IMG/VR virus record: IMGVR_UViG_2698536657_000004
Coordinates: 1-21,243 of that record
Direction: 5' to 3' (one strand)
Length of the DNA: 21,243 nt
DNA from: a virus
Lineage: Duplodnaviria > Heunggongvirae > Uroviricota > Caudoviricetes
Positions 1-15,224 of this stretch are shown piece by piece. The position numbers were made by a program, and so were the translations under genes. Positions within the stretch are counted from its first letter, which is position 1, and the number at the start of each line of letters is the position of its first letter. The notes under the pieces were generated by a model that was not told the DNA's origin, made no database searches, and saw only the letters and a program-made list of their open reading frames with translations.

Positions 1-16
1 CTGACTGAGAGTTTAC

Positions 17-544
17 TCACTTAGCCGCGTGTCCACTATTGCTGGGTAAGATCACATTACCCAGACCGGGAAAGACATTTCTCTCTAAGCTGCGCCAGAT
101 GTCTGCTGCATGGTCTTGTGAGATACCTGATGTCTTTACCTTCTCATCTAACCATTTCCGCGCTACGGCTTGGAGAGTGTGCTCAGTAGCACTCTTTAAT
201 GCCTTCGCCTTATCGTTGTTATGGATTTGGGGATCAACACCATTTGCCAGAAAGGAGAGATATTCATCACGTAAGGCTCTGGCTCTTGCAAGGGTAAGGT
301 GAGGATATGTCCCAAGGCTCATTTTGGTTCTTTTCTTGCTCACTGGTACTGCATACCTGAAATACCAATTTTTCTTGCCTCCTTTCGCCAAAGGAGCGAT
401 TCGTAGAATCAGACCATCACCGTCAAACAAGTTGATTTCTTTATCGGCTGGCTTGGTGCTTTTGATTTCAGTGTCAGTGAGCTTCTTAGCGATTTTTGCC
501 ATTTTGGGACCCTCGGTTTTTGGACCCTTCTTAGTGGGTCCCAT
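17..544 (-). pseudogene. P4-type tyrosine integrase, N-terminal arm-binding portion only (175 codons, then stop at 17-19)
   Basis: Translation shows the N-terminal DNA-binding region typical of P4/CP4-57-type integrases (NLFDGDGLILRIAPLAKGGKKNWYFRY...LGTYPHLTLARARALRDEY). Family members are about 400 aa and no catalytic domain is present in frame. Only 16 nt lie upstream of the stop, so frameshift versus true truncation cannot be resolved. Confidence 0.45.
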
Positions 545-597
545 TCAGGGTGCCATAACTCGTAGTTCTCAGCAATTCTCACTGGACGACAATAGAC

Positions 598-632
598 GTA
601 AAAAAGCCCGCAGAGCTTGTGCTGTGTGGGCT
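598..632 (-). terminator. Candidate rho-independent terminator (GC hairpin 606-632 then U6) downstream of the tmRNA 3'-end copy
   Basis: Minus strand reads agcccacacagcacaagctctgcgggc followed by tttttt; stem is short and imperfect. Confidence 0.35.
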
Positions 633-667
633 TAGTAGACTTCATTGAACTTCAAACAACTAAAAAG

Positions 668-693
668 TGGTGGAGCTGGCGGGAGTTGAACCC
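668..693 (-). other. att core: 26-nt copy of the 3' end of tmRNA (ssrA), reading GGGTTCAACTCCCGCCAGCTCCACCA on the minus strand
   Basis: Matches the remembered E. coli ssrA 3' terminus including CCA; identity stops abruptly upstream, so this is a partial copy, not a gene. It sits between the P4-type int fragment and the lambdoid int. Confidence 0.7.
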
Positions 694-827
694 AAACACC
701 GAATTTGCATAACAATATGAAAAACAAAAAATTTCAGATTATTTCTAAATGTTTTTATGTATTTCAGGTGTAGGTTTGTGTCTATTCTGTGTCCTACCTT
801 TGTACATATTTTGAAATATTTAAACGG

Positions 828-2000
828 CTAGATTACTTCTGAGATTGCTGTTTTTCCGTCATATTCTGATAAATATGAACCATAGTGTCTAAAAAGCATC
901 TCAGGTCCTTTATGTCCCATTTGACCGGCAAGCCAGAATAAATTTGCCCCTTGGCTGATATGCCTCGTGGCGAAGGTGTGTCTGGTTTGATATGGATTGC
1001 GGTAACGAACGCCAGCTTTTTTAAGTGTTGGGATCCAGGCTTTCTTGCGAATCGCTGCTGAATTAGCCCACGGCTTGCGTGTCTTTGGATCACTGAATAC
1101 AAAATCACTTCTCATCATCGTAAATGATTTCTGGGCCTGTAATGCCATTATGGCTTCACTGTTTAATTCAACTTTTCTGGTACCAGCTTTTGTTTTTGTT
1201 CCCTTTATCACGCCAACGACAGAGGCAACCTGTACGTGAACGGTATGACCAATAAAATCAATATCAGACCAGCGTAATGCACACAATTCTGAGCTTCGAA
1301 GGCCAGTATTGAATGCGAAACAAAAAAGGTTTCTCCATTCCTCATAGATGCAGGCGTTGTAGATAGCGGATGCTTCTGCTGGCGTGAAGGGATCTACTTC
1401 ATAATCGCCAGAATTGATTGCATGATTTACCGCATGGTATCTACTTGCGCTAACCAGCTTTACAGGATTTATTGTTATAAGTCCGTCAGTGACTGCTTCA
1501 TCAACTGCGCTTCTTAAAAATGACAGATTGTTTCTTATGGTCTTCAGTTTTGTCGTTCTTCTTGAAATCCATTTTTTTAATATTGCTGGTGTCAGATCTA
1601 CAACATGTAGCTTATGTAGTTCCGATAATGCGGATACGCATTTTTCATACCCATTTATTGTTGAAGGGGAGAGTTTTCTGTTTTTACAAATTTCCAGATA
1701 TTCATCAAGGTAATCTCTTACTGTTTTATTTTTCCTTACCATTCCAAATAATGCTAATTTTTTTGAGTTTGGAAAATGTTTTGAGAAATCAAAAGAGCCA
1801 TCGACAATCTGATTTTTTATTTCGCCGAGAAGTCGCTCAGCGTACTTAATTCCCTTTGCATTAGCCTCCAGTCTTGGTAAGGGTTCTCTGCAAAGAACCC
1901 CTTTATATGTGAAGGTTACAACTAGTGTAGAGCAATTCTTGTATTGACGAATTGTTATTCCTCTTGGGAGTGGTAAGGATCTTTGTTTTTTCTCGCCCAT
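828..2000 (-). CDS. int: Tyrosine recombinase (phage integrase), 390 aa
   Basis: C-terminal catalytic signature RNPYQTRHTFATRHISQGANLFWLAGQMGHKGPEMLFRHYGSYL (R, HxxR, Y); SD gagg 7 nt upstream of ATG at 2000; transcribed toward the att core as in lambda. Confidence 0.9.
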   Translation of the reverse strand: MGEKKQRSLPLPRGITIRQYKNCSTLVVTFTYKGVLCREPLPRLEANAKGIKYAERLLGEIKNQIVDGSFDFSKHFPNSKKLALFGMVRKNKTVRDYLDEYLEICKNRKLSPSTINGYEKCVSALSELHKLHVVDLTPAILKKWISRRTTKLKTIRNNLSFLRSAVDEAVTDGLITINPVKLVSASRYHAVNHAINSGDYEVDPFTPAEASAIYNACIYEEWRNLFCFAFNTGLRSSELCALRWSDIDFIGHTVHVQVASVVGVIKGTKTKAGTRKVELNSEAIMALQAQKSFTMMRSDFVFSDPKTRKPWANSAAIRKKAWIPTLKKAGVRYRNPYQTRHTFATRHISQGANLFWLAGQMGHKGPEMLFRHYGSYLSEYDGKTAISEVI

Positions 2001-2170
2001 TTTGAAACCTCAGTTAAATCAATCCATCGTTCTTTGGAGCCTTCCACATTTAAAACCTGAACCCCTTCCTTCCATACTCCACGTTGTAACCGTTTGTTAA
2101 CGGCATCCAGCGTTTCTCCCATATCTCGACACCATGTCGTTATGGGTACACAATCAATGTTGAGAGCCAT
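1955..2170 (-). CDS. xis: Excisionase-like small DNA-binding protein (71 aa)
   Basis: Small basic ORF immediately upstream of int, overlapping it by 46 nt; SD gaggt before ATG; assignment is by position and size. Confidence 0.55.
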   Translation of the reverse strand: MALNIDCVPITTWCRDMGETLDAVNKRLQRGVWKEGVQVLNVEGSKERWIDLTEVSKWARKNKDPYHSQEE

Positions 2171-2188
2171 AGTTACCTCATAAAACCT

Positions 2189-2323
2189 TCATCCACGGCA
2201 GTGGAACCACTCGTCAAACATTCGTTTCACAACGTCACGGCAGTAGAAGCCGTCAACATCACGGGTCAGGTCGTAGCGATTGCCGAATGTCTTGCGAACC
2301 CAGAACTCAAAAGCCGTATGCAT
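2189..2323 (-). CDS. Hypothetical small protein (44 aa, MHTAFEFWVRKTFGNRYDLTRDVDGFYCRDVVKRMFDEWFHCRG), below the 60-aa cutoff of the ORF track
   Basis: Hand translation of the minus strand; GGAGGTGA Shine-Dalgarno 6 nt upstream of the ATG at 2323; fills the gap between neighbouring genes. Confidence 0.3.
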   Translation of the reverse strand: MHTAFEFWVRKTFGNRYDLTRDVDGFYCRDVVKRMFDEWFHCRG

Positions 2324-2355
2324 GTATCACCTCCGTTGCATTGCGCGTAATTTTT

Positions 2356-2601
2356 TCAGGTGCTTTTCCTGCTCAGTTTCCGCCAGAATTTTGCAATTCT
2401 GCTGGTGGTCAATATGTTCGAACAGGCGGTGAACTCACCAATGCGTACCCGACCGGAGTGTCCGTCCATACGTCGAAAGAACACAGAGAGATCCGTACAG
2501 CGAGTAATCACTACAGGGTATCCGGCCCTGTCCGTGTATATTTGTCCGCGTTGAATAAGTGCGAACATACAGTTATCCCCAGTGGTAAATTGCAAATGCA
2601 T
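2356..2601 (-). CDS. Hypothetical protein (81 aa)
   Basis: Minus-strand ORF co-directional with the operon, starting 9 nt after the upstream gene's stop; weak SD; composition not strongly protein-like. Confidence 0.3.
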   Translation of the reverse strand: MHLQFTTGDNCMFALIQRGQIYTDRAGYPVVITRCTDLSVFFRRMDGHSGRVRIGEFTACSNILTTSRIAKFWRKLSRKST

Positions 2602-6738: not shown

Positions 6739-7442
6739 ATACAACAATTTTTACCGACAAAGCATCCATGACCAGCATTGAGATTGCCGAGCTGGTAGGT
6801 AGCCGCCATGACAGTGTGAAGAGAGCAATTGAACGTATTGCTGAACGATGTGTTACCCAACTTCCACCAATGGTGGAAGTTGAGAATAAACAATCACTTA
6901 GTCCTAATAAATATACTAAGGCGTACATCTTCGAAGGCGAACAAGGCAAACGCGACAGCATCATTGTTGTCGCACAGCTTTGCCCTGAATTCACCGCTCG
7001 CCTGGTAGACCGCTGGCGCGAACTGGAAGAACAAATCCGCAGACCAATGAGCCAGATCGAAATGGTTGCTGCAATGGCGCTTGAAGCCGTTCGCCAACAA
7101 AGACGTCTTGAGCAGGTGGAAGAGAAAGTCACCCACGTTACTGAAACCGTCGAGCAAATCAAAAGAGGCACCATACGCGATGGTTATGCAGGCTATCGTC
7201 AGCTGGTGGCGAAAACGGGTATGTCAGATGCGAAATGCCGCAATCTGGTGAACGCATATCAGATCCCTACCGACACCCATGAATTTATGACACCAGATGG
7301 TTTGTTGTCGCGTCGCGCGATTGTTGCAGTAGAACCTTTCATGGCTGCTTTCCGTCACATGATGAGTGAAGCAGAACCACGAGGTACTCGCTGGTATCAC
7401 CCGAAAATGGGACTGTTCCAGGCGCTGGGCTGGCAGGTGTGA
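6735..7442 (+). CDS. Rha-family phage regulatory protein with C-terminal extension (235 aa)
   Basis: N-terminal segment SMTSIEIAELVGSRHDSVKRAIERI typical of Rha domains; GTG start overlapping the cro stop (GTGA), SD aggag 7 nt upstream. Confidence 0.7.
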   Translation: MNTTIFTDKASMTSIEIAELVGSRHDSVKRAIERIAERCVTQLPPMVEVENKQSLSPNKYTKAYIFEGEQGKRDSIIVVAQLCPEFTARLVDRWRELEEQIRRPMSQIEMVAAMALEAVRQQRRLEQVEEKVTHVTETVEQIKRGTIRDGYAGYRQLVAKTGMSDAKCRNLVNAYQIPTDTHEFMTPDGLLSRRAIVAVEPFMAAFRHMMSEAEPRGTRWYHPKMGLFQALGWQV

Positions 7443-7461
7443 TTATGCTCACAGGTAACAC

Positions 7462-7632
7462 ATGCAAGTACTCAATCGCTGGTTCCGTGATGGAAGAGGG
7501 CGTCGCGTCCACGTTATACGCTGGGAGCCTGAAACACAGCGGGTTATTTACCTGCGTGATGGTTATCCGGATGAGTGCTTCAGTCCGTTGTGGCTGTTTC
7601 GTCGTGATTTTGTTGAGTGCGAAGCGCCGTAA
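7462..7632 (+). CDS. Hypothetical small protein (56 aa, MQVLNRWFRDGRGRRVHVIRWEPETQRVIYLRDGYPDECFSPLWLFRRDFVECEAP), below the ORF-track cutoff
   Basis: Hand translation in a different frame from the long track ORF 7439-8287; protein-like composition; ends upstream of a terminator. Confidence 0.4.
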   Translation: MQVLNRWFRDGRGRRVHVIRWEPETQRVIYLRDGYPDECFSPLWLFRRDFVECEAP

Positions 7633-7732
7633 GGCCTGTGCTGTTTACAATATTGATTTCCGGCGGTACACTTTTCTTATAGTGGCAAAATCCACTATCG
7701 GGAGTGAGACCCCGGAATTGATCGAGGCGACA

Positions 7733-7758
7733 AACGACGCGCCAGCGTCTTTTTTGTT
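7733..7758 (+). terminator. Rho-independent terminator (tR1-like) in the rightward early operon
   Basis: Hairpin gacgc-gcca-gcgtc (7736-7749) followed by ttttttg. Confidence 0.6.
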
Positions 7759-7783
7759 GTCAGTGCCTGCGCACACCAGAATT

Positions 7784-7924
7784 ATGGTGGGCTGGGCAGG
7801 GGAACCGAAAGGTTCGCCGGTTTCCTTGATCGCCGGTAGTCTCAACCCTGTCCAGTCCGCCACCAGCGAGATTGAGACCTCCTGTGGTGGATATTGTCAT
7901 TCACCGATCAAGGAGGCTGCCATT
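7784..7924 (+). ncRNA. Candidate structured cis-regulatory 5' leader, copy A, upstream of the second Rha gene
   Basis: 141 nt, aligns without gaps to copy B; nested helices; GAACC-GAAA-GGUUC hairpin at 7802-7815; CCUCC (7878-7882) complementary to the downstream SD GGAGG (7912-7916). Confidence 0.45.
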
Positions 7925-8287
7925 ATGGCTACGATCCCCGCACACCCATACCTCAAAATCGAGGTCGTCAACGGCAGAGCCGTTATATTCTCCCTGTATG
8001 TCGCCTGTCACTTTAAGCGCATGCATAAGAATATCGTCGATCGAATCGAATATCTCAACTGCTCACGCGAATTTCTTACCCGCAACTTTATACCTGGCAC
8101 TTATCGCGCCTATGGCGATTCAGTGCGCGGTTATTACATCACCCGTGATGGTCTGATGATGCTACAGCTAGGGTTAAGTCTGCGCACCATGCGGTACTAC
8201 GAGAGCTGCATTAAAGCACTACATGAGGTTGAAACCTTCCAGGGCCACTCTGCTTTCCGTCGTAATCAACGGGAGGTGCATCAATGA
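7925..8287 (+). CDS. Rha-family phage regulatory protein, divergent paralog (120 aa)
   Basis: Rha-domain start pattern MATIPAHPYLKIEVVNGRAVIFSLYVACHFKRMHKNIVDRI; AAGGAGG 8 nt upstream of ATG 7925; the track ORF extends upstream in frame, alternative start ATG 7784. Confidence 0.55.
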   Translation: MATIPAHPYLKIEVVNGRAVIFSLYVACHFKRMHKNIVDRIEYLNCSREFLTRNFIPGTYRAYGDSVRGYYITRDGLMMLQLGLSLRTMRYYESCIKALHEVETFQGHSAFRRNQREVHQ

Positions 8288-8442
8288 AGCGCCACCAGCA
8301 TATTGATTCTGCAATTCCGGAACGTTACACTGTGAAGGCACCTTATAAAGCGGGTGCCGGGATTGGCGTCCTGAAATTGATTACTGAGCAAAACCGCGCT
8401 CATGCGGTTTTTTCGTACCATGAGCATTGCTACGCCCAAATT

Positions 8443-8583
8443 ATGGTGGGGCGTACAGGGCCGACTTCGGTCGGGCCGGGTTCGGTAGTCTCCGGTAACG
8501 CCAACCCTGTACGTCTCACCACCTCTGTGATTGGCGTCCCATGTGGTGAGTTTTCTAAAAAACTGACTACCGGGGCTGTCACC
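8443..8583 (+). ncRNA. Candidate structured cis-regulatory 5' leader, copy B, upstream of the third Rha gene
   Basis: Same length and conserved blocks as copy A; hairpin here is CCGAC-UUCG-GUCGG (8461-8474); GUCCC (8536-8540) complementary to GGGGC (8572-8576) at the ribosome-binding region. Confidence 0.45.
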
Positions 8584-9147
8584 ATGACTACTCTCCCAAC
8601 CCTCGTTCAACCTGAAATTGCCATTGTTAATGGGCAGGCTGTTACAACTTCATTGGCTGTTGCCGACTTCTTCTCCAAACGTCATGACGATGTTCTGAAA
8701 AAGATCCGTATCTTGGATTGTTCGTCAGAGTTTTGTGCCCGCAATTTTGCGGAGACATCGATTTCGCTAAATCAACCGAATGGTGGTACACGCAAACTTC
8801 CCTGCTACCAAATAACCCGCGACGGTTTTGCGTTTCTTGCTATGGGCTTCACTGGTAAACGTGCAGCCCGGTTTAAAGAGGCATACATCAATGCTTTTAA
8901 CCAGATGGAGAGAAGCTTATCAGGAGCTGGCGCGGCTGACATGTCATCTGTCGCACAAAATGCCAGAGGCGTATACCTGCATTTGCGTGAAATCCATCAA
9001 ATCTGGAAAAGCCAGCTTTATCCCATGCTTAAGGCCGTTGAATCTCCGCTGGCTAGCAAACTGTACGACCGTGTAGGTGATGCTGTTTTTGGGGCCGCAC
9101 TTGTTGATTCCAGACTGAACGGTTCTGACAAGGAGGTGCGCCCATGA
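8584..9147 (+). CDS. Rha-family phage regulatory protein (187 aa)
   Basis: Canonical Rha-domain pattern IAIVNGQAVTTSLAVADFFSKRHDDVLKKIRIL...YQITRDGFAFLAMGFTGKRAARFKEAYINAFNQME; start placed at ATG 8584, alternative in-frame ATG 8443. Confidence 0.65.
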   Translation: MTTLPTLVQPEIAIVNGQAVTTSLAVADFFSKRHDDVLKKIRILDCSSEFCARNFAETSISLNQPNGGTRKLPCYQITRDGFAFLAMGFTGKRAARFKEAYINAFNQMERSLSGAGAADMSSVAQNARGVYLHLREIHQIWKSQLYPMLKAVESPLASKLYDRVGDAVFGAALVDSRLNGSDKEVRP

Positions 9148-11569: not shown

Positions 11570-12966
11570 CCAGCCAGAACACCCCGGCATGGCGTAACGA
11601 TGACCTGGAAGGTGCAGTGATTGGCGCGTTTTTTCTGCGTGGGGCTGATCCGGAAGTGATGGATATTCTGGCCACGCTTCCGGCGGATGTCTTTTTCGTG
11701 CGTCAGTACCGGGATATTTACACGGGGATCTGCAGACAGGCCCGTGTATCCGGCGTCATTGACCCCGTGCTGTTGTGCAATGAGATGCCGGAGCTTGCCC
11801 CGGTGATTACCGACACCGGTCGTAAAACCTGGGTGAAGTCTTCACTGGAGCACTATGTTGCAGCGCTGCGGCGAAATGCCGCACTGCGCGATGCAGAAAA
11901 AACACTGACCGAAGCATTACAGAATTTACGTGATGCGCATACCTGTGAAGCAGCCGAGGATGCCCTGAAGGATGCGCAGAACATGATGGCCACACTGTCG
12001 ACAGGAAAGGGCGTCATTCAGCCGGTTCACATTGATGATGTCCTTCCGGAAGTGGTCAACCGTGTTGAATTCCGCAGTCAGGGACTGGAGAAATCCAGGG
12101 CGCTGATGACTGGTATTGATGAACTGGACGCAAAAACGGGAGGTATGGAACCAGGCGACCTGGTATTCATTGCGGCTCGTCCTTCGATAGGGAAAACCGA
12201 ACTTGCGCTGGACATCATCGACAAGGTGACTGAGCAGGGGCATGGCGTGCTTCTGTTCACCATGGAGATGGCGAACATCCAGATTGGTGAACGTATGGTG
12301 TCTGCTGCCGGGGGAATGCCGGTATCCCGTCTTAAATCTGTTGCCCGTTTTGAAGATGAAGACTGGGCGCGTTTCTCTCAGGGAGTGGGACGAATGACGG
12401 GGCGTAATATCTGGATGGTGGACCAGGCAAACCTGACCATTGATGAGATATGTGCAACCACGAGGCACCACCGGATGAAACACCCGGAAACGGCGCTGGT
12501 GGTGGTCGATTACCTCGGCCTGATTAAAACCCGTAGTACCGGACGTCACGACCTTGCCGTGGGGGAAATCTCAAAGGGACTTAAAAGCCTGGCAAAATCC
12601 GGCGGTTTCCCGCTGATAGCGCTGAGCCAGCTCTCTCGCGGCGTGGAATCCAGACCCAATAAACGCCCCATGAACTCGGACCTGAAAAACTCCGGGGAAA
12701 TAGAGGCGGATGCAGACATCATTCTGATGCTTTACAGGGATGAGGTGTACAACCCGGACACACAGGCGAGAGGCATAGCAGAAATCAACATCACGAAACA
12801 GCGTAATGGCACGCTGGGTACCATTTACCGGCGTTTTCATAACGGGCATTTTCTGCCTGTGGACCAGGAGAGTGCCCGGGTTCTCTCCACTCCCATGACG
12901 CCGGGCAATCCGCGCAGATACAGCAATAACCGCATGCCGGGCAGTAAAAATGGGCGTTTATTTTGA
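11566..12966 (+). CDS. DnaB-family replicative helicase (466 aa)
   Basis: Walker A ARPSIGKTELALD; DnaB-like C-terminal blocks (LSQLSRGVESRPNKRPMNSDLKNSGEIEADADIILMLYRDEVYNP); ATG overlaps the upstream stop (ATGA) with SD ggaggtg. Confidence 0.85.
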   Translation: MTSQNTPAWRNDDLEGAVIGAFFLRGADPEVMDILATLPADVFFVRQYRDIYTGICRQARVSGVIDPVLLCNEMPELAPVITDTGRKTWVKSSLEHYVAALRRNAALRDAEKTLTEALQNLRDAHTCEAAEDALKDAQNMMATLSTGKGVIQPVHIDDVLPEVVNRVEFRSQGLEKSRALMTGIDELDAKTGGMEPGDLVFIAARPSIGKTELALDIIDKVTEQGHGVLLFTMEMANIQIGERMVSAAGGMPVSRLKSVARFEDEDWARFSQGVGRMTGRNIWMVDQANLTIDEICATTRHHRMKHPETALVVVDYLGLIKTRSTGRHDLAVGEISKGLKSLAKSGGFPLIALSQLSRGVESRPNKRPMNSDLKNSGEIEADADIILMLYRDEVYNPDTQARGIAEINITKQRNGTLGTIYRRFHNGHFLPVDQESARVLSTPMTPGNPRRYSNNRMPGSKNGRLF

Positions 12967-13220
12967 ACAACAGAACAATCACTGTTTCACCGGAACAACT
13001 TCGTCGGCAGGCGCAGGAGATGCTTCGTTGTGCTGAACAGATGGAAAAAACGAGCGTGGCAAAAGATACGCTCCGCAAGCAGCTTACTCCGGCGCTTCGT
13101 GATCTGCTGCAGGCAAAACACCGCACACAAAAGGCGGTGGATGAGCTGGTGGATTGCGTGGCGGAACTGGAAGGCCAGGTAAGCCAGTTTGAAACACTGG
13201 TGAAGGAGTTTACTGCGTGA
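12963..13220 (+). CDS. Hypothetical small helical protein (85 aa)
   Basis: Protein-like charged helical composition; start codon uncertain (TTG overlapping the upstream stop, or a downstream ATG). Confidence 0.45.
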   Translation: MNNRTITVSPEQLRRQAQEMLRCAEQMEKTSVAKDTLRKQLTPALRDLLQAKHRTQKAVDELVDCVAELEGQVSQFETLVKEFTA

Positions 13221-13266
13221 TGGCTGAATTTTTTTCTCCTGTGTTCATGCAATATCGGTTGCTGAG

Positions 13267-14262
13267 GTGAACGTGAGAGCACTGCTGACCCCTGAAATTG
13301 CCCCGCGTATGGGGATCGTATTGTTCAGACCCGGTTCAGAGCTGATGCCCCTGTTTATGCAGGGGCGTGTTCTGCTGGAGCCTGAGCCGGAACGTTATTC
13401 ATCTTTCGCCAGTGGTGCTGTTCCGGCGGCATCACAACCGCTGGCGGATGATCCTGCTGTACGGGCCGTGTTCCGCAATGAGGCAGTGATCCGTCGTGCT
13501 GGTGGCGTGGAATGTCTTGAAAGCTGGTTACTTCGTGAAAAGGGCTGTCAGTGGCCTCATTCCGACTGGCACAGCGAGAACATGACCACAATGCGACACG
13601 CTCCGGGCGCAATCCGTCTGTGCTGGCACTGCGATAACCAGTTGCGCGATCAGTTCACGGAACGGCTGGAATCAATGGCAACGGATAACTGTGCCCGCTG
13701 GGTGTTGTCTGTAGTCCGTCGGGATCTCGGTTTTGATGATAACCATGCCGTGACAATGCCGGAACTGTGCTGGTGGCTGATTCGTAATGACCTGGCGGAT
13801 GCCTTACCTGAAAGCGCAGCCCGTAAGGCGCTGAGATTACCGAAACCTGTTGTGCCGTCTGTCACCCGGGAAAGTGACCTTGTGCCTTCGGTTCCTGCCA
13901 CCAGCATCATCCAGGATAAAGCGAAAAAGGTGCTGGCGCTGAAAGTGGATCCGGAGTCGCCGGAGTCTTTTATGTTACGCCCAAAACGTCGCCGCTGGGT
14001 TAATGAAAAGTACACGCGCTGGGTCAAGACACAGCCGTGTGCATGTTGTGGAAAGCCTGCTGATGATCCCCACCACCTGATAGGCCACGGTCAGGGTGGA
14101 ATGGGGACAAAAGCGCATGACCTCTTTGTGTTGCCTTTGTGCAGAAAACACCACGACGAACTGCATGCGGATACTGTGGCATTTGAAGAGAAGTATGGCT
14201 CCCAACTGGAGCTGATATTTCGTTTTATCGATCGCGCGCTGGCGATTGGTGTGCTGTCCTGA
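13267..14262 (+). CDS. Nin-region protein with C-terminal HNH-like Cys/His motif (DUF968-like)
   Basis: C-terminal CACCGKPADDPHHLIGHGQGGMGTKAHDLFVLPLCRKHHDELH; located between replication genes and Q; start codon uncertain (GTG, poor SD). Confidence 0.6.
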   Translation: MNVRALLTPEIAPRMGIVLFRPGSELMPLFMQGRVLLEPEPERYSSFASGAVPAASQPLADDPAVRAVFRNEAVIRRAGGVECLESWLLREKGCQWPHSDWHSENMTTMRHAPGAIRLCWHCDNQLRDQFTERLESMATDNCARWVLSVVRRDLGFDDNHAVTMPELCWWLIRNDLADALPESAARKALRLPKPVVPSVTRESDLVPSVPATSIIQDKAKKVLALKVDPESPESFMLRPKRRRWVNEKYTRWVKTQPCACCGKPADDPHHLIGHGQGGMGTKAHDLFVLPLCRKHHDELHADTVAFEEKYGSQLELIFRFIDRALAIGVLS

Positions 14263-14279
14263 TTTTGTGGAGAAAGTTA

Positions 14280-14672
14280 ATGCGTGATATTCAGATGGTT
14301 CTTGAGCGCTGGGGAGCGTGGGCGGCAAGTGGTAACGCCGGGGTGGACTATTCTCCGATAGCAGCCGGATTCAAAGGTCTTTTACCATCTACAACTAAAC
14401 CTCGCCCGGCCTGCAGCGATGATGACGGTCTTATTATCGAAAACTGCCTTACGCGCCTGAAGAAGAAAAAACCGGACGAGTATTCGCTGCTGGTGGCGCA
14501 TTATCTGCTGCGCATATCAAAAAGGCAGATTGCCAGAACAAGAAAGAAGAGCGAAAAGGCAATACGAATTGAGATGCGGATTGCTGAAGGATTTATTGAT
14601 GGATGTCTGTCGATGCTGGGTGTAAGGCTGGAGATGGACGACTGGCTGCCCAAAAAAGTAAGAAATGATTAG
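14280..14672 (+). CDS. Q: Late-gene antiterminator Q (short Q family)
   Basis: N-terminal MRDIQMVLERWGAWAASG matches remembered short Q proteins; SD ggagaaag upstream of ATG 14280; followed by a strong terminator and the late-region genes. Confidence 0.65.
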   Translation: MRDIQMVLERWGAWAASGNAGVDYSPIAAGFKGLLPSTTKPRPACSDDDGLIIENCLTRLKKKKPDEYSLLVAHYLLRISKRQIARTRKKSEKAIRIEMRIAEGFIDGCLSMLGVRLEMDDWLPKKVRND

Positions 14673-14730
14673 CGCGGTCCGCAAAAAGTATGTCAGTATG
14701 TTAAGAGTGGTTACTTTGCCACACAACTTA

Positions 14731-14756
14731 AACCCGCCGATGAGCGGGTTTTTTGT
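14731..14756 (+). terminator. Rho-independent terminator about 60 nt downstream of Q (candidate tR')
   Basis: Hairpin aacccgc-cgatga-gcgggtt followed by T-run. Confidence 0.65.
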
Positions 14757-14876
14757 ACTCTGATGTTGGCAGTACAGTAAACGCGCTGGTGGCGGTGAAT
14801 ACCTGTCTTTCAGCTTGCTGGTGTTTTCGACAAGAGTTATTGGTGTGTCACGTTAACCGGAAAAGGTAAAAAAGAC

Positions 14877-15074
14877 ATGCTGAAACAGCAGGATATGACA
14901 GAAACCGCCAGAGTGGTGTTTAATGAATTAAGCGTCACCGAACCGGCGACAGTCGGGGAGATTGCGCAGAATACTTACCTTTCACGCGAACGCTGCCAGT
15001 TAATACTGACCCAGCTTGTTATGGCGGGTCTGGCAGACTATCAGTTCGGTTGTTACAGACGCCTTCAGTCCTGA
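14877..15074 (+). CDS. Hypothetical small protein (65 aa), winged-helix-like
   Basis: ORF with its own terminator overlapping the stop codon; weak SD. Confidence 0.45.
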   Translation: MLKQQDMTETARVVFNELSVTEPATVGEIAQNTYLSRERCQLILTQLVMAGLADYQFGCYRRLQS

Positions 15075-15086
15075 AGGCTTTTTTAT
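15061..15086 (+). terminator. Rho-independent terminator
   Basis: Perfect hairpin gccttcag-tc-ctgaaggc followed by tttttt. Confidence 0.65.
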
Positions 15087-15224
15087 TTGTGGTAAATGGG
15101 CGGCTGGTGGGTGTTAGGGGCACTCACCAGCCATCTGCTCATGCGTCTGGATCACAAGCAAACCTCAGGCCCACTGCTTTGCGCGAAAGCAGAATGAGCC
15201 TATCAGAGACAGGCTTAATGATCC

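Follow-up and report, generated by a model that had tools for sequence, protein, structure and literature searches.

The tmRNA gene ssrA is an integration hot spot where leftover intA genes are found beside newer prophages (PMC11597368), and it was reported as the integration site of Shiga toxin (Stx) phages in O111 strains (Ogura et al. 2007, PMC2323221). The Islander study (Hudson, Lau and Williams 2015, PMC4383910) set out the principle of an intact tRNA or tmRNA gene (tDNA) plus a displaced fragment, described tandem arrays, and found tmRNA to be the most enriched target. Tandem prophages that share one attachment (att) site have been referred to as the "traditional view" (PMC8112680). Here, we analysed a stretch of 21,243 nucleotides (henceforth the window) from a Caudoviricetes virus record, IMG/VR IMGVR_UViG_2698536657_000004, which holds at its start two integrase genes separated by a piece of ssrA. 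With a probability of roughly 0.9, window 1-830 is the integrase-proximal junction of a lambdoid prophage that is integrated at the 3′-end of ssrA and that entered after an island and an insertion sequence, IS3. Because ssrA is a published hotspot for Stx-type phages, such a junction is already known; it is an ordinary E. coli junction type and involves no new mechanism.

Read on the minus strand, which is the direction of ssrA, window 1-2170 contains in succession an excisionase gene, a complete integrase gene, an att arm, the core, a flank ending in a terminator and the start of a P4-type integrase gene. The core (668-693, minus strand) is a displaced ssrA 3′ fragment. Its sequence, TGGTGGAGCTGGCGGGAGTTGAACCC, occurs once in the whole window, with 0 mismatches; no further copy was present in the window at up to three mismatches, and none appeared in 100 shuffled sequences. 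The preliminary description of this DNA had read the 26-mer as a copy of the tmRNA 3′ terminus lying between two integrase genes of the same orientation. Alignment to E. coli K-12 ssrA bore this out, since the reverse complement equals the last 26 nt of the gene, GGGTTCAACTCCCGCCAGCTCCACCA, at 26 of 26 positions. In that alignment ssrA identity starts exactly at GGGTTC, preceded by phage sequence, and ends at CCA; it breaks off exactly at 693/694. Both integrase genes are on the minus strand, and the 26-nt core together with a 134-bp spacer separates the complete gene from the 5′ part of the P4-type one. ARAGORN and Rfam found no tmRNA gene in the window, and at a permissive threshold Rfam matched just 13 nt of the tmRNA model (E = 0.051), which does not indicate an RNA gene. 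Since ssrA identity stops at 693/694 and the window has no tmRNA gene, the 26-mer is a fragment and not a gene. It covers part of the T-stem, the T-loop, the 3′ strand of the acceptor and the ACCA of ssrA and, with 26 of 363 nt, it is far too short to code for a tmRNA. As part of a gene the 26-mer is a non-functional leftover, yet it is an att core: by analogy with known systems, 668-693 would be the core of the site that the integrase and the excisionase use for excision.

The complete integrase gene (828-2000, minus strand) encodes a protein of 390 amino acids (Int) and reads toward the core, as had been described. Pfam placed an Arm-DNA-bind_2 domain at residues 12-80, a SAM-like domain and a Phage_integrase domain at residues 206-373, and the protein matched phrog_1 (integrase). 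When it was aligned to the Int of Tn1549, the catalytic residues R235, K269, R340, H363 and Y373 could be placed, with Y337 at the position of the first His. Judged by these domains and residues, which are intact, the protein is a lambda-type (heterobivalent) tyrosine integrase. The adjoining gene (1955-2170, minus strand), which overlaps the start of int, encodes the cognate excisionase (Xis) of 71 amino acids; it matched phrog_2917 (E = 1.9e-36), and its homologue carries an excisionase annotation in the E. coli O111:H8 strain 8E. The resemblance to the Int/Xis/attP system of lambda includes the combination of arm-binding and catalytic domains, the int gene directed toward att, the overlap between xis and the int start, and two AT-rich arms with repeated, phased motifs. 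The differences are that the arm domain here is Arm-DNA-bind_2, that the target is a tmRNA 3′-end and not an intergenic attB, that the candidate arm motif, RGAC, is phased at 11 bp, and that a Tyr seems to replace the first His of HxxR.

The gene on the other side of the core is the 5′ part of a P4-type island integrase (55-502, minus strand), identified by Pfam and by its homologues; it comprises 150 codons and has been inactivated by IS3. The open reading frame (ORF) at 17-544 (minus strand) had been described as a truncated P4-type integrase whose frame stops after 175 codons. While its length was right, the frame does not merely stop: IS3 cuts the gene. The 175 codons consist of 14 upstream codons, 150 integrase codons and 11 codons encoded by IS3, and the stop at 17-19 is also IS3 sequence. 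The first in-frame ATG is at 544; the start annotated in homologues corresponds to window 502, which leaves 161 codons. In the product of this ORF Pfam found Arm-DNA-bind_3 and just the first 39 positions of Phage_int_M, and no catalytic domain. P4-type integrases combine Arm-DNA-bind_3 (DUF4102), Phage_int_M and a catalytic domain in one protein, and all three are found in the intact 409-aa homologue (WP_001341819.1) present in 8E and in one of the compared loci, L009. On this domain content the copy in the window is a disrupted gene. There was no recorded match for the 175-aa product, and the matches to the 161-aa product were only phage-free contigs or contigs with a P2-like phage.

The agent of the disruption could be identified from the first bases of the window. 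Window 1-54 (minus strand) is the left terminal inverted repeat of IS3; its reverse complement begins TGATCTTACCCAGCAATAGTGGACACGCGGCTAAG / TGATCTTACCCAGCAATAGTGGACACGCGG, the IS3 terminal repeat, and the rest of the insertion sequence lies beyond the window start. A Megablast search against 5,426 complete E. coli genomes aligned the window only from base 54 on, and bases 1-60 alone matched 3945 of these genomes with a median of 4 copies per genome, some of them plasmid-borne. In strain ETEC1720 the sequence of window 1-54 adjoins an annotated IS3 transposase gene. Only one IS3 end lies inside the window, and the other side of the insertion was seen in a phage-free locus (L014) that matches the window at every one of the 693 nt they have in common. 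There, the same IS end is followed by orfA/orfB (HTH_Tnp_1, rve) and then by the C-terminal 168-aa catalytic piece of the integrase. The sequence of L014 is gggtaATG[IS3]ATGtccc and that of the uninterrupted L009 is gggtaatgtccc, so that the ATG at window 55-57 (minus strand) is one copy of the 3-bp target duplication, the second being present in L014. Because IS3, the catalytic part and the ATG duplication are all found in L014, the integrase gene was split by a canonical IS3 transposition and was not frameshifted. The frameshift, for which an alignment of the 17-544 protein with full-length relatives had been suggested, is ruled out: homology to the full-length gene ends at window 55, where IS3 starts.

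Of the proposed P4/CP4-57-like identity of this gene, the first half held. The 409-aa homologue is only 48% identical to K-12 IntA, and because of this the island integrase is a P4-type relative and not that of CP4-57 itself. The island and CP4-57 share a P4-type integrase gene directly downstream of ssrA in the same orientation and a similar ssrA terminator hairpin. They differ in the integrase, which in the island is split by IS3, in the flank that follows CCA (AAAATTCTCC... in K-12, CTTTTTAG... in the island) and in their cargo, the island having HEF_HK and Response_reg_2 genes. The island remnant is about 9 kb long and P4-type. In L014 its cargo (12530-16486) includes a 138-aa ORF, a HEF_HK/HATPase_c protein of 572 aa and a Response_reg_2 protein of 582 aa, bordered by a second IS3 and an alpha-amylase C-terminal pseudogene.

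Are the phage side and the island side parts of one element or of two? The exact 390-aa Int was listed in 182 blocks of the protein-position index of the collection, and eight loci (L006-L013), all with an identical Int, were taken for comparison of the flanks. The 134-bp arm and the core were identical in the eight loci, except for a 5-bp deletion inside the core of L013. The sequences past CCA belonged to three unrelated classes. The first, CTTTTTAG..., is followed by the 409-aa P4-type integrase gene in L009 and by its split form in the window; the second, AAAATTCTCC..., leads to a CP4-57-type integrase gene of 387 aa (L007); and the third, ATCATGATTGG..., has no integrase gene and leads to csiD-gabDTP or to a gene for a 1,524-aa protein. 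In all eight loci the breakpoints coincide exactly with the ends of the 26-mer, as predicted by site-specific recombination within that block. The proposal that a lambdoid phage had been inserted at an ssrA site already occupied by an island was upheld, with the same phage found next to three different flanks and the same island found in phage-free strains. The deletion in L013 (11300-11340; same phage, identical Int) affects the displaced core, which reads GGGTTCAACTCCCGCCAGC-----CCAATC, and would probably lock that prophage in place.

A single composite element holding both integrase genes, as some deposited phage records imply, is hardly credible in view of these flanks. The record LN997803.1 (phi467) speaks for it by including a 409-aa "CP4-57 integrase" and neighbouring island genes, but the phage without the island and the island without the phage both exist, the break lying in each case exactly where the 26-bp core ends, and phi467 is simply a record that continues beyond the core into island sequence. 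On the sequences compared, the phage side and the island side are independent elements. Positions 1-2600 of the phi467 record take in, beyond the core, the genes of the neighbouring island for the 409-aa "CP4-57 integrase", the 138-aa product and the response regulator, and the record appears to be an over-extended prophage call; since it includes island genes, it shows how readily annotation merges the two elements.

The order in which the elements arrived was approached through the phage-free strains. From the core on, L014 and the reverse complement of window 693..1 have the same sequence, with 0 mismatches in 693 nt and the IS3 junction included. The chimeric int'::IS3 lies directly past an intact smpB-ssrA in four phage-free loci (L014, L015, L017 and L018), and in another locus (L016) a P2/186-like prophage occupies the slot between ssrA and the same IS3-split island. 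That prophage (L016 1-9835) encodes a GPA replication protein, a CI repressor and an Int, and its ssrA identity upstream of the core is at least 19 nt longer than that of the lambdoid phage; because of this longer identity, a second, unrelated phage family uses ssrA with a longer att block. The junction between ssrA and the island is common: a 151-nt query across it was covered to 80% or more in 951 of the 5,426 complete genomes, and core plus flank had a match in 716. The junction of phage arm, core and island of the type seen in the window was found in only 4 of them, at 93-96% identity. None of the complete E. coli genomes covered the junction region above 94% identity, and the exact 54-nt junction pattern had 0 matches among the GTDB representative genomes.

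These data bear on the reverse order, in which the phage entered ssrA first and the island came later into the displaced core copy. The geometry alone leaves the order unfixed, and the displaced copy keeps the whole 26-bp core and could in principle serve as a secondary target. Against this, the island integrase is dead, the identical IS3 insertion (0 mismatches in 693 nt) lies beside an intact ssrA in phage-free strains, the island junction is far commoner (about 700-950 genomes) than the phage junction (4), and the same phage adjoins other flanks in island-free strains. We regard the reverse order as very unlikely. Since an island whose integrase is split cannot insert on its own, and phage-free strains have the identical IS3 insertion, the most economical order is island, then IS3, then the phage, which would have come in between ssrA and the already inactive island.

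The junction would have arisen in the following manner, to which the tDNA-integration principle (PMC4383910) is applied. The phage attP would carry a 26-30-bp copy of the ssrA 3′-end between the AT-rich int-proximal arm and a second arm. Following the lambda paradigm, Int, with host bending proteins, would recombine attP with ssrA by bridging arm and core sites. Strands would be exchanged within the sequence common to both sites, probably in the symmetric T-stem-loop GGGTTCAACTCCC; the position of the crossover within the 26 bp is suggested by analogy. The reaction would rebuild an intact ssrA at the far end, where the phage supplies the downstream sequence and the terminator, and would displace the original 26-nt 3′-end, together with all the sequence formerly downstream of ssrA, to the int-proximal end. 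The former downstream neighbour of ssrA would be the remnant of about 9 kb of the P4-type island, its integrase already split by IS3. The two integrase genes belong to two separate elements, which would have entered ssrA at different times, first the island, then IS3 into it, and then the phage. Int and Xis would reverse the reaction.

Two features expected of an element integrated in this way are found in the window: one end is marked by a fragment with full identity (26/26, unique) to the 3′-end of the target gene, and an integrase gene lies inside the element beside the att site, with the end of int 134 bp from the core. The third, an intact target gene that lies at the opposite end and points the same way as the fragment, was found in two relatives. 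The closest complete genome with the same junction is that of E. coli O111:H8 8E (NZ_CP077465.1), which has the same order of P4-type int, core, Int and Xis and 94% identity over window 54-2394. In the Stx1a prophage of 8E an annotated intact ssrA, on the same strand, lies about 36 kb away at the far end and is followed by smpB. The two ends of that prophage share 30 bp, GGGTTCAACTCCCGCCAGCTCCACCACTTT, composed of the 26 nt of ssrA and 4 nt (CTTT, window 664-667). Its far arm has a terminator hairpin of its own, which would now terminate ssrA. A far arm of the 8E type was found beside ssrA in 572 of the 5,426 complete genomes, O157:H7 included. For PhiR12_1, a less closely related phage with 73% DNA identity in int, the record starts and ends in the same ssrA block. 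The window and the Stx1a prophage of 8E are alike in the order of the integrase genes, the 26-bp fragment, the 390-aa Int, Xis, the int-proximal arm and the RGAC motifs. They differ in that the 8E island integrase is intact (409 aa, no IS3) and that of the window is split by IS3, and in that 8E carries stx1a, no stx ORF having been seen in the 21-kb window.

Several points weigh against this account. The far end of the prophage is outside the window, and because of this its intact ssrA is inferred from the relatives. The order of events follows from parsimony (the shared IS3 insertion and the frequencies) and not from observation, and the role of Int in recombination is taken from analogy with lambda. 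A third ssrA fragment was not found at the distal end of the island in L014, where native flanking sequence is regained after about 485 nt, beside an IS3 and a pseudogene. Because the boundaries of the island have decayed, it is not strictly a member of an array with a fragment of its own. The locus shares with the tandem islands of Islander an intact tDNA, a 3′ fragment in the same orientation, an integrase gene between them and stacked elements; it differs from them in the broken integrase of the island and the missing distal fragment. The strict tandem-array rule demands an integrase and a tDNA fragment for every member separately. The phage has both and the island has only a split integrase, and the arrangement is a phage next to an island remnant. 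Finally, homologous recombination or generalized transduction could have brought in the whole smpB-ssrA-prophage-island segment from another strain as a finished array. The same junction is present at 93-96% identity in four unrelated complete genomes, the prophage is a mosaic of which at most 65% of the length is found together in any one genome, and the conserved flanks, ssrA upstream and the island downstream, could support recombination. Such a transfer changes only where the integration happened and not the nature of the junction; we consider it unlikely, with a chance well above that of the other alternatives.

The int-proximal att arm (694-827, minus strand) is an AT-rich segment of 134 bp that is on average 88% conserved among relatives. 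The preliminary description had proposed two direct repeats in it, tgtgtc (777-782 and 788-793) and tttcag (732-737 and 762-767), as integrase arm sites. The first pair fared well and the second did not. Two candidate arm-type Int sites 11 bp apart (773-794, minus strand), each with an RGAC motif, read on the ssrA-sense strand GGACACAGAAT at window 794-784 and AGACACAAACC at window 783-773. The tgtgtc repeats are the complement of the GACACA part of these sites, and are for this reason a reasonable arm-site candidate. The tttcag repeats were rejected, since they are not conserved in relatives. In the far arm of 8E the RGAC motif occurs six times, at +10, +21, +50, +61, +72 and +83 from the tmRNA end. 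Both arms together have 8 copies on the ssrA-sense strand and 0 on the opposite strand. The motif was picked post hoc, after viewing the sequence, and with this selection five neighbouring pairs are exactly 11 bp apart, where 0.016 were expected and 0 of 20,000 shuffles reached five. In alignments of the int-proximal arm in four relatives and of the far arm in six, the GAC columns were invariant at 24 of 24 positions, compared with 80 of 186 other arm columns. An unbiased search for k-mer repeats in the reconstructed attP yielded mostly A/T-rich low-complexity words and returned no informative repeat.

The phasing and the invariance make the RGAC motifs candidates for arm-type sites of Int, and the protein that binds them could instead be Xis or another one. 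It may even be that these RGAC motifs, arranged 2+2+4 and phased at 11 bp, represent an undescribed arm-site code of ssrA-targeting integrases with the Arm-DNA-bind_2 domain. A separate 20-bp block, AAATATTTCAAAATATGTAC (window 802-821, minus strand), lies just past the int stop codon. None of the four int-proximal arms departs from it, although one of them comes from a locus with an overall identity to the window of only about 80%; a host-factor site and a signal at the 3′-end of int are possibilities.

The island side of the core begins with a 65-nt flank, which ends in a hairpin. This intrinsic terminator hairpin with a T run (601-634, minus strand), recognized by its fold and by a terminator-like site at 618-604, is supplied by the island; it is the former ssrA terminator, now orphaned. 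The hairpin aligns to the one downstream of ssrA in K-12, and in phage-free strains the same terminator flank directly follows the intact ssrA. The orphaned junction joins the 26-nt 3′-end of the tmRNA to a conserved flank of some 35 nt and to the island terminator. There is a slim chance that this junction (601-693, minus strand), located downstream of int, is transcribed as the int 3′ untranslated region or alone and acts as an IsrM-like RNA or as a retro-regulator of int.

Rfam gave a partial match to IsrM, a Salmonella small RNA (sRNA), at window 600-733 (minus strand), with 59.6 bits against a gathering score of 376 (E = 6.8e-16). Some 70 nt at the 3′-terminus of IsrM differ little from the island flank and terminator (approximately window 600-670) and follow a degenerate copy of the ssrA 3′-end; from this likeness, IsrM appears to end in an att junction of this island family that has decayed. 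An IsrM-type RNA gene in the window was rejected, as a match so far below the gathering score is not indicative of one.

The remaining part of the window includes other features of interest. Two tandem pairs of isrK sRNA and C4 antisense RNA (7679-7867 and 8338-8526, about 659 bp apart) were found by Rfam, all above the gathering score, each within or beside an ORF of the Rha/ASH type (7439-8287 and 8284-9147); the region looks like a duplicated antirepressor control module similar to P1/P7 c4. Region 16324-20372 has the architecture of an Stx-phage late region without an stx gene. It includes tRNA-Met/Arg/Arg genes (16324-16573), a 167-aa ORF (17266-17769) that matches the "tellurite resistance" moron phrog_632, an STnc100 sRNA (17996-18208), and a 651-aa ORF (18417-20372) that occupies the position held in relatives by the SASA/NanS-p esterase gene.

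For annotation, these results mean that the 26-mer is the true boundary of the prophage, a boundary that at least one deposited phage record (phi467) crosses, and that the P4-type integrase fragment and IS3 belong to the island and not to the phage. The junction is a clean natural example of the successive use of one tmRNA gene, in the order island, IS3, phage. To a known arrangement it makes two small additions, the order of events and a candidate code of phased RGAC arm sites for a widespread family of ssrA-targeting integrases of Stx-type phages.

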